Shown here piece by piece: positions 12,021-16,462 of a DNA stretch of 64,000 nucleotides. Numbering within the stretch: the stretch's first letter is position 1; every line of letters starts with the position of its first letter. The notes below the pieces were generated by a model that had not been told where the DNA came from, ran no database searches, and saw nothing but the letters and a program-made list of their open reading frames with translations. Made by a program: the position numbers and the translations under genes. The stretch lies in the sequence record PP889466.1; one strand, given 5' to 3'. Source of the stretch: Klebsiella phage phi1_146015.

Positions 12021-14186
12021 ATGGCTGATTTGAAATTAGGTACAACGCTGGGTGGTGCGGGTATCTGGAGTGCTTCTAACCTTCCTCTATTGCCCTCTGG
12101 TGGACAATTAACGTATAAAGGGTGGAGAGTATACACAGAGAACGATCGCCCAACAGCAGAAGATATAAACGCACTGTCGATGATTAACGGAGGTACTGTT
12201 GCGAAGAATACTACGTTTAGTCAAAACTTGGTTGTTGGTGCTTCATTAACTTCTAACTCGATTCAATCTAATAGTGTTCTTACCATCCAACGTAGTGCAA
12301 ACCCTGCGGAAATGATTTTCCATCGTCCTGATATTACGGCAACACCATCATCGGAATCGTGGGTTTTAAACCTGTATGCGAAAGATGGTTTAAATCGAGG
12401 TATGGGTTCTTTGATTATTTCTGCACGTAGTGACGGCGGAAATAAAGTATATCTACGGGCGAATAAAGACGGTTCCCCTAATACAAGTTTAACACTGGAT
12501 TCACAAACCCAACAGGTAACAGTTGAGCAAGGTTCTTTCCGTGTAATCGGGACTTCTAACCTCGGCTTAACGAATGCTACATCAATGGCAGTTAGTGGCG
12601 CGATTACTGCGAATACAGTAACTCCGTCAAACTGGGCTAACCATGATGAACGTTATATCACGGGTATTCCTCGCGGTATGTCTGGAAACAGTTTCGGGGC
12701 TGCTGTTGTAACTGAAAAGAACGATGTTCTGTCAGTAGGCGGTAACATCACCGACGGCCCATATGGTAACACTACGTATTACGGGCAGGTTGTCAACTAT
12801 CGCCGTACTCTGAATAGTGGTGTTTCTCTGGTTCAGACTTACTATGATATAACATCAACATGGATTCGTGCTGCGACGGGTTCTCCTGGTGCATGGTCTT
12901 ATAGTGCGGGTGATGCTAATGGATGGAGAAGAATTTATGATACTTCGCTTCCTCCGACTCCGGCGGAAGTAGGGGCAGTCAATAAATCCGGTGATGCGAT
13001 GACTGGTGTTCTAACACTGGCAAACATATCTCAACCACTTAAAACACCCGGCGGTGGTATTCTGGCTAATGACGGGAACGTGTATATCAACAAAAGCGGG
13101 TTTGCAGGATGGATCGATGCACTGTTCTTGAAAAATACAGGAGGCACGGTAACAGGAACCATCAACCAAACAGGCGGTTATTTTGATGCATCGGGGGAAG
13201 GTAGAGGTTCTTGGGCTTCTCAAAGCACTGCAAAAGCTCCGATTTTCCAGAATATTAACACTACATCGACATCTGAATACTGGCCTATTATTAAGCAATA
13301 TTATTCTCAGGCTGGCGGTGCGTGGTCTATGGGTACGTTGGTAAACACCAACAGGTTTACAGTCCATTACCGTACTGGATCGGTAGATCGTCAATGGTAT
13401 TTTGATAACTCTGGTGAGTTTGTATCTTATGGTGATATTATTTCCAACTCAGCCAACGGATTGCGTATTGCATACAATAACCGTGGATTCTTTATCCGAA
13501 ATGACGGTGGTAACACCTATTTCATGTTAACAAACTCAGGTGATGCATGGGGAAGTTATAATAACCTACGTCCTTTGTATATAAATAATGATACTGGTAA
13601 TGTCTCGATGGGACATACGTTATCAGTCAACGGACGTATCAGCCAGTCAAGCAGTTATATTGACAATGGAAATTTAACATTAAACGGTAGCGGCAACGGA
13701 CGCGTTGAATTTATTCGCAGTGGTGCAAACCCTCGCGATATGTATATCTTCCATGCTGGTGATGCTACTCGCGGAAACCGTATAGAACTGTCGGATTCAT
13801 CGTCGTATCTGGTTTATTTTGAGCGTCATCCGTCAAGTGGCGTTCAGTTGATAATGAACGGTAATGGTAGTTTTAACGATGTATATATTCGTTCTGATGA
13901 AAGACTGAAAAGTAATTTCAGTAAGATTGAAAATGCATTGGATAAAGTTGATTTACTTGATGGTATGGTGTACGACAAAGCAAATCACATTGGGGGTGAA
14001 GAAACTACCCGTGAGGCTGGTTTAGTCGCACAACAACTGCAAGAAGTATTACCGGAAGCCGTTAAGAAAGGTGTTGATGGTGAACAGAATGAGATCTTAA
14101 CTGTTTCTTCTTCTGCTGTTATTGCATTGCTTGTCAACGCGATTAAAGAACTCCGTGAGGAAGTCAGGGAACTTAAATCCCGCTAA
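12021..14186 (+). CDS. distal tail fibre protein A (gp36-like N-terminus, gp37-like body, C-terminal intramolecular chaperone domain)
   Basis: N-terminus MADLKLGTTLGG..IWS.SNLPLLPSG..TYKG resembles T4 gp36; EYWPIIKQYYSQAGGAWSMGTLVNTNRFTVHY resembles T4 gp37; C-terminus ...VYIRSDERLKSN..GLVAQQ..LPEAV..ALLVNAIKELRE is a peptidase S74-type intramolecular chaperone domain. Confidence 0.8.
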   Translation: MADLKLGTTLGGAGIWSASNLPLLPSGGQLTYKGWRVYTENDRPTAEDINALSMINGGTVAKNTTFSQNLVVGASLTSNSIQSNSVLTIQRSANPAEMIFHRPDITATPSSESWVLNLYAKDGLNRGMGSLIISARSDGGNKVYLRANKDGSPNTSLTLDSQTQQVTVEQGSFRVIGTSNLGLTNATSMAVSGAITANTVTPSNWANHDERYITGIPRGMSGNSFGAAVVTEKNDVLSVGGNITDGPYGNTTYYGQVVNYRRTLNSGVSLVQTYYDITSTWIRAATGSPGAWSYSAGDANGWRRIYDTSLPPTPAEVGAVNKSGDAMTGVLTLANISQPLKTPGGGILANDGNVYINKSGFAGWIDALFLKNTGGTVTGTINQTGGYFDASGEGRGSWASQSTAKAPIFQNINTTSTSEYWPIIKQYYSQAGGAWSMGTLVNTNRFTVHYRTGSVDRQWYFDNSGEFVSYGDIISNSANGLRIAYNNRGFFIRNDGGNTYFMLTNSGDAWGSYNNLRPLYINNDTGNVSMGHTLSVNGRISQSSSYIDNGNLTLNGSGNGRVEFIRSGANPRDMYIFHAGDATRGNRIELSDSSSYLVYFERHPSSGVQLIMNGNGSFNDVYIRSDERLKSNFSKIENALDKVDLLDGMVYDKANHIGGEETTREAGLVAQQLQEVLPEAVKKGVDGEQNEILTVSSSAVIALLVNAIKELREEVRELKSR

Positions 14187-14189
14187 TTA

Positions 14190-14214
14190 AAAGCCCTTCG
14201 GGGCTTTTTCTTTT
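14190..14214 (+). terminator. rho-independent terminator
   Basis: AAGCCCTTCGGGGCTT hairpin followed by a T-run. Confidence 0.6.
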
Positions 14215-14222
14215 TATAAATA
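14215..14222 (+). promoter_or_regulatory. T4-type late promoter box TATAAATA
   Basis: exact TATAAATA 27 nt upstream of the fibre B ATG. Confidence 0.6.
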
Positions 14223-14248
14223 TCATAAAAGCATTTGAGGATCTAATA

Positions 14249-16462
14249 ATGGCAGATTTAAAAGCGGGTACTACCGTTGGCGGTAATACTATCTGGAGTC
14301 AGGCGAACTTGCCTTTGCTCCCTTCTGGAAACACAATCACATATAAAGGCTTTAAAATCTACACCGAAAACGATAAGCCAACAAAGGCAGAAATCGGATT
14401 AGGCAACGTAACGAACGATGCACAGGTGAAGAAAGCTGGTGATACAATGCAAGGAACTTTGGAATTACAAGGTTCTGCAACTGAATTGAAATTACCATTC
14501 AGGATCGCAATGGTTAGGGCAACAGAACCGTATCTCGTTGCAACTCGCACAGACAATAACCCAGTAACAAACGGGTTTCCTAGCGCAGAAACACGCACAT
14601 TTGTTATACATTCAAAAACCGCGTCACCAACGTCAGATCCAAACTTGGGGGCAAACCTTGTTGATCTGATTTGTACCCAACGCCCTGCGGGTGGTGGTGC
14701 TTATTATATCCGTGCTTTTGGCGCACCAAACACGACAACTGGTGCTGCTGGGGCTATCCGTGCTGAATTACAAATGTTGGGTGATAATGGTCTTGTTAGT
14801 TTAACAGGGACGCAATTCAATATCGGGATGCAAACCGTTGTCAGTGGCACGATCTTTGGTGCGCAAATGGCTATCAAAGGCGACGGAAACAAAAACCTGT
14901 ACTTCCAGGATGCTGGCGGTAATGAGCTTAGTTTGATCTATGCTGATACAGGAAAGAACTTATATGTTCGTACTGGTGGTGGTGCATACGCAACCAGATT
15001 TGCATCTGATGGAACTTTAGTTCTCGCTAACCATCTAACTGTTCCTGGACAGGCTACGTTTAACGGTCTGGGTGTATTCAATAACCGTGCTTCTGTTGAT
15101 ACTGATTATGATACACAAGGCGCAAACTCAGCAATATTACGAATAGTCACAAATGGTGATGGAAACGGGGTTGGTGATGGTGTTACCCACTTAGGCTATA
15201 AAGACAGCAACGGACGATATAACCATTATTTCCGTGGTACTGGTGTAACGTATATTAACACCAAATTAGGTCTTAACGTAAACGTTCCATCATATTATAA
15301 TGACGTTCCACAGGGCACACCAGCGCAATATTTCTTACCTACTGTTGGACAGGGCGGGAAAAACTATTTGCGCCAGTTCCGAGGCGGTAACGCGGACACA
15401 ATCTGGCATGAAACTGTTCAGGGTGGCGTATATCGACTGGCAACAGGTTCTACAGACGCACAGGAAGAATTACAGATTTCTACTGCGGGTTATGCCCGAT
15501 TCCGTAACGAAGTCCAAAGTAACACTTCCGGTGCTGGCGGTCAGTTCCGTGCGGTACAAGGCAACTATGGGGTAATACTCCGAAATGATGGTGGTAACTA
15601 CTATACCTTGATCACAAACTCTGGTGATCCGTGGGGAACATGGAACGGCTTACGCCCGTTCACTATTAGCTTAACTACTGGTATTGTATCAATGTCCAGC
15701 GGGGTTAATATCTCAGGCGGTTTCAACATTTCTGGTGCTGCTGAATTTAACAACGGACTTGGTTGTGGTACTGCAAACGGATTGGGCGCGACTGGTATTT
15801 CTCTGGGTGATAACGATACAGGTTTCAAACAGGAAGGTGACGGTATTCTCAACGCCTATGCAAATAGCCAGCGTATTATGCGATGGACTACTGGTGCAAC
15901 TGCTAACTATAAACAGTTACAGGTTCAGGGTGTTAACGGGCCAGCATTACTTCTGAATAACACAGCGACTAACCAATCGTGTTATTTGCTGATTACTTTG
16001 GCAGGTAACAACGGCGCATACTTCGGGTTTGGTGGTGCTGATGATAACGTATCGGTACACAACTACCGACTGAATACAACCTTACAATTACGTACTTCGG
16101 ATCTGTATATGAACCGTGGTCTGTATGTTGAAGGTAACGTAAACGCCAACGATGTGTATATTCGTTCCGATATTCGACTGAAATCTAATTTAGTTGAATT
16201 GAAAGATTCATTAAGCAAGATTGAACAGCTTAAAGGTTATATCTACGATAAGCAATCAAAAGATGCTGATGATATCGTATACCATCGCGAATCCGGTCTG
16301 ATCGCTCAGGATGTTGAGAAGGTATTGCCGGAAGCAGTGCGCGAAGATACTGATACTGGTATGCTAACCATTTCACCTTCTGGGATCAACGCGCTTCTGG
16401 TTAACGCAATCAACGAACTGCGTGAACGTCTGGAAGCAATCGAAAACAAATTGGGGGCTTAA
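14249..16462 (+). CDS. distal tail fibre protein B (paralogue of A, with C-terminal intramolecular chaperone domain)
   Basis: N-terminus MADLKAGTTVGG..IWSQANLPLLPSG..TYKGFKIYTENDKPT; shares NYLRQFRGGNADTIWHETVQ..YRLATG with gp34 in this window; C-terminus ...VYIRSDIRLKSN..GLIAQD..LPEAV..ALLVNAINELRE. Confidence 0.8.
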   Translation: MADLKAGTTVGGNTIWSQANLPLLPSGNTITYKGFKIYTENDKPTKAEIGLGNVTNDAQVKKAGDTMQGTLELQGSATELKLPFRIAMVRATEPYLVATRTDNNPVTNGFPSAETRTFVIHSKTASPTSDPNLGANLVDLICTQRPAGGGAYYIRAFGAPNTTTGAAGAIRAELQMLGDNGLVSLTGTQFNIGMQTVVSGTIFGAQMAIKGDGNKNLYFQDAGGNELSLIYADTGKNLYVRTGGGAYATRFASDGTLVLANHLTVPGQATFNGLGVFNNRASVDTDYDTQGANSAILRIVTNGDGNGVGDGVTHLGYKDSNGRYNHYFRGTGVTYINTKLGLNVNVPSYYNDVPQGTPAQYFLPTVGQGGKNYLRQFRGGNADTIWHETVQGGVYRLATGSTDAQEELQISTAGYARFRNEVQSNTSGAGGQFRAVQGNYGVILRNDGGNYYTLITNSGDPWGTWNGLRPFTISLTTGIVSMSSGVNISGGFNISGAAEFNNGLGCGTANGLGATGISLGDNDTGFKQEGDGILNAYANSQRIMRWTTGATANYKQLQVQGVNGPALLLNNTATNQSCYLLITLAGNNGAYFGFGGADDNVSVHNYRLNTTLQLRTSDLYMNRGLYVEGNVNANDVYIRSDIRLKSNLVELKDSLSKIEQLKGYIYDKQSKDADDIVYHRESGLIAQDVEKVLPEAVREDTDTGMLTISPSGINALLVNAINELRERLEAIENKLGA

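Follow-up and report, generated by a model that had tools for sequence, protein, structure and literature searches.

The 64,000-nucleotide (nt) stretch of DNA analyzed here, referred to as the window, comes from Klebsiella phage phi1_146015 (PP889466.1), an RB43-like phage of the genus Pseudotevenvirus. Its + strand carries a complete T4-type long-tail-fiber module in the order gp34, gp35, two tandem fiber genes designated A and B, a gp38-type adhesin gene, and the holin gene t. The fiber stretch containing A and B shows 95.6% nt identity to Enterobacter phage EC-W1 and matches 62 phage records, all RB43-like, the hosts of which belong to the genera Enterobacter, Cronobacter, Citrobacter, Klebsiella, and Escherichia. 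A preliminary description of the DNA, made from the letters alone, reported two adjacent open reading frames (ORFs) of 721 and 737 amino acids (aa), and these are found exactly at 12021-14186 and 14249-16462 on the + strand. Both appear to encode distal halves of the long tail fiber, and this two-cassette arrangement is the subject of the analysis. The features of the module are as follows.

6675..6682, + strand: late-promoter-like TATAAATA, 31 nt upstream of the gp34 start codon
6714..10373, + strand: gp34, proximal half-fiber, 1219 aa (annotated gp34 in EC-W1 and Margaery)
10379..11968, + strand: gp35-type hinge connector, long form, 529 aa
~11969..11989, + strand: terminator-like hairpin GGGGC-GAAA-GCCCC with a T-run, after gp35 and before A (by-eye reading; conserved in relatives)
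11990..11997, + strand: late-promoter-like CATAAATA before A (invariant in six relatives)
12021..14186, + strand: fiber gene A (F1, 'gp36-37.1' type), 721 aa
12021..12170, + strand: gp36-type hinge-docking module of A, aa 1-50 (F1 signature GGAGIW.ASN)
13893..13895, + strand: Ser625 of S-D-E-R-L-K in A, predicted self-cleavage site
14189..14208, + strand: terminator-like hairpin after A (terminator scan)
14215..14222, + strand: late-promoter-like TATAAATA before B
14249..16462, + strand: fiber gene B (F2, 'gp36-37.2' type), 737 aa
15779..15892, + strand: tip segment of B, aa 511-548, LGATGISLGDNDTGFKQEGDGILNAYANSQRIMRWTT (homologous to the S16 gp37 tip fragment crystallized with gp38)
16166..16168, + strand: Ser640 of S-D-I-R-L-K in B, predicted self-cleavage site
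16489..17007, + strand: RB43-type short gp38 adhesin, 172 aa (Pfam Gp38_N, PHROG 1121)
17061..17705, + strand: holin t, end of the fiber module (Pfam Phage_holin_T, E 2e-55)

As judged by sequence comparison, A and B are each a gp36 N-terminus fused to a gp37-like shaft that ends in an S74 intramolecular chaperone. In BLASTP searches, residues 1-72 of A (44% identity, E 3e-18) and residues 1-48 of B (56% identity, E 2e-16) significantly match the N-terminus of T4 gp36, as the preliminary description had proposed. PHROG 1425 covers residues 1-86 of A and 1-49 of B, and the gp36-type module MADLK.G.T.GG..IW...N.P..P.G....Y...IY is present in both. The layout is not that of the short gp36 (~220 aa), since the similarity to gp36 does not extend beyond about residue 72 in these chains of 721 and 737 aa. 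No copies of gp36 besides the N-termini of A and B were found by tblastn of the whole window with T4 gp36, and neither the N-terminus of T4 gp37 nor a T4-type gp38 was found in the window. The matches of A and B to T4 gp37 are internal shaft matches only (A aa 394-475 with T4 gp37 685-777, 41% identity, E 1e-16; B aa 275-345 with T4 gp37 339-408, 42% identity), with neither the gp36-binding N-terminus nor the C-terminal collar, needle, and receptor-binding head. The fiber-family motifs listed in the preliminary description lie at the places given there. The Pfam domain Gp34_trimer, which also occurs in Mu gpS, is found in both A and B, and the motif RGG.ADTIWHETVQ is common to gp34 and B. NCBIfam gives no match for any of the four fiber proteins.

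The S74 domain expected at both C-termini is detected by Pfam (Peptidase_S74, PF13884) at residues 625-682 of A (E 8e-14, 52.1 bits) and 640-698 of B (E 1.6e-14, 54.3 bits), well above the curated cut-off of 22 bits. The catalytic dyad of S74 domains, established with endosialidase and T5 pb1, consists of the Ser at the cleavage site and a Lys five residues downstream. The corresponding S-D-x-R-x-K sequence is SDERLK at 625 in A and SDIRLK at 640 in B, and is also found in S16 gp37 and 8jov. Both ends are homologous to the chaperone domain of S16 gp37 (PDB 6f45). The fragments predicted to be freed by self-cleavage are thus aa 626-721 of A (13896-14183, 96 aa) and aa 641-737 of B (16169-16459, 97 aa). 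The two proteins are most similar at their N-termini: the identity is 66% over the first 50 aa, 45% between the S74 domains, and ~30% over the whole proteins. At the nt level it is 62.7% over the first 150 nt, close to the earlier estimate of about 65%.

The gp36-type N-terminus was used as a tblastn query and matched 1455 phage records. Among them, two copies per record are found only in Pseudotevenvirus and KVP40-like Vibrio phages, and both copies are present in all Pseudotevenvirus records screened (~57 genomes). The pair also occurs in more distant lineages. This points to an old duplication and rules out an artifact, in agreement with the preliminary description, which had argued against a recent duplication or an assembly error.

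We compared 58 annotated fiber loci from GenBank, IMG/VR, and metagenome assemblies (cited by their L numbers where needed). At classic T-even loci, gp35 is short (371-383 aa), gp36 is a separate protein of 215-234 aa, and gp37 starts with a T4-type N-terminus and is mostly followed by gp38. In the long-gp35 clade, gp35 has 515-533 aa and the fiber proteins (600-865 aa) open with the gp36 module; a separate gp36 is absent from the window and from every long-gp35 locus surveyed. Seven of the ten long-gp35 lineages have two fibers (Pseudotevenvirus, Pantoea phage Phynn, L052, L053, L054, L055, and L056/L016), and three have a single one (Yersinia phage JC221, 816 aa; Pectobacterium phage POP12, 800 aa; L058, 865 aa). 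Two such fibers are found in none of the ~30 short-gp35 loci. In the two-fiber lineages, each fiber has its own folding or adhesin solution: either an S74 domain, with or without a Gp38_N adhesin, or a separate Caudo_TAP chaperone. The two genes thus behave as two self-contained receptor-binding cassettes. The single fiber of L058 (10611-13208) should also be noted: its residues 11-21 are of the second-gene type and the continuation is of the first-gene type, a chimera that would not result from simple deletion between the copies of a tandem pair.

The long gp35 of the window consists, in order, of a FAM3/ILEI-like domain, a carbohydrate-binding-module (CBM)-like domain (~aa 205-330), a linker (aa 335-391), and an extra CBM-like domain (~aa 391-528). 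It aligns with T4 gp35 over residues 4-354, and a second match (residues 420-502 with T4 residues 218-296, E 3e-7) falls in the extra domain. T4 gp35 stops where this domain starts, and the window protein is 157 residues longer. A single-chain AlphaFold2 model (mean predicted local distance difference test score, pLDDT, 74.6) shows three domains, the third repeating the strand/helix order of the second, and has low confidence in the linker between domains 2 and 3. This conserved linker holds AAIGVNGIRM, the most conserved motif of gp35, which is likely to be an interface with a partner. The PDB contains no relative of T4 gp36, and for the window gp35 it contains only FAM3C; the interface at the knee is therefore unreadable from structures. 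A strict tie between the extra domain and the number of fibers was considered and rejected, since JC221, POP12, and L058 have the domain and one fiber.

The gene following B encodes a protein of 172 aa. Its N-terminus is a Gp38_N attachment domain (Pfam, E 1e-21), and the protein belongs to PHROG 1121 'tail fiber adhesin' (E 9e-63). The protein shares 68% identity with gp38 of RB43, where spontaneous host-range mutations have been mapped, so that a role of the RB43 protein in determining host range is proven (Trojet et al. 2011, PMC3157838). No glycine-rich motifs are found in its C-terminal domain, in contrast to the polyglycine sandwich of the T2/S16 type; the glycine-rich gp38 type is found in JC221 and UPEC03. 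The preliminary description had proposed that A and B fold independently of gp38 and gp57A and had missed this gene, which lies only 26 nt 3' of B with no promoter or strong terminator between. For gp38, that proposal does not hold. In T2, T6, and S16, the gp37 ends in an intramolecular chaperone that is cleaved, and the fiber is then capped by the gp38 adhesin (PDB 6f45). An S74-ended gp37 followed by gp38 is normal there, and the S74 end is therefore no departure from T-even practice. A search of the window for gp57A gave no match, which is uninformative.

B has the layout of the T2/S16 type, an S74-ended gp37 with a Gp38_N gene downstream. The position of its tip segment points in the same direction. 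Residues 511-548 of B align with residues 22-59 of 6f45_A, and the motif recurs 5' of the S74 site in gp38-associated gp37s. The tip of B is homologous to the pre-chaperone tips of the T-even gp37s in L031 and L040, each of which is followed by Gp38_N proteins, and in UPEC03 the B tip type stands beside a glycine-rich gp38 of the T2 type. None of the gp38-associated gp37s was found to end in the tip type of A. The 26-nt spacing and the tip homology to gp38-associated gp37s support the assignment of B as the probable partner of the downstream adhesin. The motif GDNDTG was considered as a specific gp38 dock and rejected, since many gp37s have it well away from the tip as well.

Some T-even-type loci carry tandem pairs of Gp38_N adhesin genes after one gp37 (L031 14690-15859, L040 14646-15848, and L046 14844-16005). 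The second Gp38_N adhesin of L046 aligns over its entire length with the 172-aa adhesin of the window, at 60% identity. Such a pair after a single gp37 represents a different route to two specificities.

The variation among relatives is concentrated in the distal parts of both proteins. In A, aa 1-~320 and the S74 domain are mostly 55-100% identical, and aa ~320-600 are swapped (0-30% identity). In B, variation is found mainly at residues 400-640. A few types of segment are found just before the cleavage site, and these are shuffled among the two fiber genes of the pair and T-even gp37. For example, the 'AYNIWKAT.W' tip type is found on both fiber genes of RB16 (L015, 11654-16323), on the first gene in L011 and L017, and on the second gene in RB43.

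Three phages have a lesion near the 5' end of the first fiber gene: RB43 (AY967407) has a 1-nt deletion at codon 21, Lw1 has a 14-nt deletion at codon 6, and UPEC03 has an exact 91-nt tandem repeat. The lesions lie at ~8640 in L007, ~11650 in L013, and 9093-9274 in L051. All three phages were propagated on Escherichia coli (E. coli), and their second fiber genes and adhesin genes are unbroken. In ~45 other phages screened, no lesion was found in the first 66 codons of the first gene. If the lesions are real, the probability that all three fall by chance among the four E. coli phages is ~2e-4 (hypergeometric). The first gene is intact in RB43-GVA, AY266307, and RB16, and the 1-nt deletion in RB43 may therefore be an error or specific to a stock. 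The use of the AY967407 frameshift as proof of gene loss is tempered accordingly by the intact RB43-GVA and AY266307. Provided that the lesions are real, the sequences suggest that the first gene is dispensable, that is, that the second fiber can be mounted without the first. Recurrent loss of this gene is consistent with competition at a single dock, where losing a useless fiber would allow more of the useful ones to be mounted.

The preliminary description gave each gene its own late promoter and terminator. The octamers are present (CATAAATA 31 nt 5' of A and TATAAATA 34 nt 5' of B), as is the hairpin 3' of A, whereas 3' of B there is only a weak hairpin before the adhesin gene. The hairpin 5' of A was read by eye and was not listed by the terminator scan. 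Neither octamer is enriched in the window overall, and weight is therefore placed solely on their positions and their conservation in relatives. A third exact TATAAATA is found at 13580-13587, inside A near codon 520.

Taken together, these observations make it probable, though by no means assured, that A and B are alternative distal half-fibers competing for one knee, that B is capped by the adhesin, and that virions carry a mixture. A and B would each form a complete cassette for the distal half-fiber, with a promoter of its own. Each chain comprises a gp36-type module of ~50 residues, which is at the knee in T4, a gp34/gp37-type shaft, a swappable distal module, and the S74 chaperone. The S74 domain would drive trimerization and then cut itself off after Ser625 in A or Ser640 in B, leaving predicted mature chains of 625 and 640 residues. 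The freed tip of B would then be capped by the adhesin encoded downstream, as suggested by gene order, co-transcription, and tip homology, and A would bind a receptor directly or be likewise capped. With no separate gp36 and N-termini of the same kind, each trimer most likely docks alone on the gp34/gp35 knee, so that A and B would compete for the place. The six fibers of a virion would be a mixture of A-type and B-type fibers with two receptor specificities. The single gp36-N-terminus fibers of JC221, POP12, and L058, each accompanied by a long gp35, indicate that one such protein suffices per fiber. The proposal of two alternative distal half-fibers on the same hinge, made in the preliminary description, is thus the one favored by the evidence.

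Several points weigh against this arrangement. No expression or virion data for A or B were found in the literature searched, and one or more of the three lesions could be an error of sequencing or assembly; the first gene is intact in RB43-GVA and AY266307. One chain of 625-640 residues has about half the length of T4 gp36 plus gp37 (1247), which predicts a much shorter distal half-fiber. The attachment domain of the adhesin is nearly identical in phages with differing B tips, so that the adhesin may cap A too. Two-fiber loci occur only with the long gp35, and its extra domain could mean a second dock. Finally, the N-termini of the first (F1) and second (F2) genes differ at positions 13, 14, 18, and 19, a difference conserved across ten lineages with F2 as the canonical gp36 type, which hints at non-identical docking environments.

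The last two points are also the basis of a branched fiber, in which every knee would carry both an A trimer and a B trimer and the extra gp35 domain could be the second dock. We consider this arrangement unlikely, although it accounts for the restriction of two fibers to long-gp35 loci, for the fold of the extra domain, which repeats that of the preceding one, and for the distinct signatures of the two N-termini. Slightly less likely still is its full consequence, that all six fibers would show two tips, one of them capped by the adhesin, an architecture undescribed for T4-type phages. A precedent for two S74-ended proteins in one structure is found in the lateral fibers of the T5-like phages DT57C and DT571/2, which are reportedly branched, with paralogous LtfA and LtfB of different specificities that each have an S74-type end; T5 pb1 is an L-shaped fiber. 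The second fiber of DT57C and DT571/2 is said to dock on the first via a different N-terminus, whereas A and B share one N-terminal module. The long gp35 is accompanied by one fiber in JC221, POP12, and L058, and its link with two fibers may stem from one ancestral event. The AAIGVNGIRM segment, the likely interface, is present as a single copy only and has low pLDDT in the monomer model. The extra domain resembles a glycan-binding module, and, without competition, the recurrent loss of the first gene in E. coli phages is harder to explain. As a weaker variant of the fork, gp35 itself, with its FAM3-like lectin-type domain and two CBM-like domains, might provide a third, glycan-binding contact, judging from its domain composition.

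A spare or silent cassette is more doubtful. Only one of the genes would then be represented in virions under given conditions, the other serving as a recombination reservoir, or the subunits would mix. The mixed-subunit and silent-copy alternatives were raised by Trojet et al. (2011, PMC3157838), who took the fiber size to point to a single gp37 trimer, either a mixture or one expressed copy. The octamer of A, which is CATAAATA and not the canonical TATAAATA, and the exchange of tip modules between the two positions are compatible with such a role. However, CATAAATA is invariant among relatives, and nearly every one of the ~57 genomes carries the two genes unbroken, as do distant lineages, which points to selection acting on each. 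With only ~30% identity between the chains, which also differ in length and in the order of their modules, mixed trimers are unlikely.

A serial fiber, with A acting as gp36 and B as gp37 joined end to end, is implied by the product names ('small' and 'large distal subunit') that GenBank records of RB43 and several relatives give and would match T4 in length (1265 residues for mature A plus B, 1247 for gp36 plus gp37), but is very improbable, as B opens with the same gp36-type module as A and lacks the gp36-binding N-terminus of T4 gp37, relatives manage with one such protein, each fiber of relatives has its own chaperone or adhesin, and the first gene is broken in viable phages.

The competition between two alternative half-fibers, if correct, has a practical side. 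In T4-like phages, host range is determined by the tips of the long tail fibers, and members of Pseudotevenvirus are entering therapeutic cocktails against Enterobacter, Klebsiella, and Cronobacter. If both fibers are mounted, these are phages with built-in dual receptors, which bears on the emergence of resistance and on fiber engineering.

The pair itself has been described before, and the novelty implied by the preliminary description was overstated. The two-cassette arrangement is real, genus-wide, and on record since 2003, when the RB43 entry in GenBank (AY266307) named the genes 'gp 36-37.1' and 'gp 36-37.2', with the note 'amino-terminal region similar to amino-terminus of gp 36 from T2' and the second gene 'organized in a similar manner'. 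RB43 and Aeh1 were later stated to 'have duplications of g37', 'function unclear', the duplication in Aeh1 being a tandem one, and more than one distal fiber gene was noted in other T4 relatives too (Trojet et al. 2011, PMC3157838). No later literature testing the g37 duplication was found, nor were fiber experiments in papers on Pseudotevenvirus isolates. What is new here is the absence of a separate gp36, the link with a long gp35, the folding or adhesin solution of each fiber, and the first-gene lesions confined to E. coli phages. The purpose of the duplication has stood as an open remark since 2011, and this comparative pattern of two cassettes only with a long gp35, each with its own solution, and repeated loss of the first on E. 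coli makes the question directly testable.

Comparison with known systems places the window closest to the RB43 pair, with which it shares the genus, the gene order, the gp36/gp37 fusion in both copies, and the short gp38 downstream. The distal modules and tips differ: the second fiber of RB43 has 812 aa and an 'AYNIWKATHWG' tip, whereas B has 737 aa and an 'NNGAYFGFGG...HNYRLNTTLQL' tip, and the 95.6% identity is to EC-W1, not to RB43. The T2/T6/S16 type is resembled in the S74 domain with S-D-x-R-x-K, the S16-homologous tip, and the Gp38_N gene directly downstream. The fiber of that type, however, consists of gp36 and one gp37 of 900-1300 aa, whereas the window has two chains of ~730 aa with gp36 fused to the shaft, and its adhesin is without the glycine-rich sandwich domain. 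The likeness to T4 is limited to the N-terminal 48-72 residues for gp36 and the two internal segments for gp37 (339-408 and 685-777); the gp37 N-terminus, the needle/head domain, and the T4-type gp38 chaperone are lacking, and gp35 is the longer form.

In the KVP40-like Vibrio phage VH7D (KC131129; L008 5161-16200), two proteins of 512 and 1399 aa share a gp36-type N-terminus, as A and B do, and a 576-aa S74-ended protein lies between them. The gene order and sizes differ from those of the window, and the stretch retrieved contains no detectable gp35 relative. About 15 kilobases of this record are without annotation.

Directly 5' of gp34 in the window, a 475-aa ORF is found at 5230-6657. The product falls in PHROG 2467, a family of unknown function, and Pfam gives no match; its position and length (474-475 aa) are kept in every long-gp35 locus examined.

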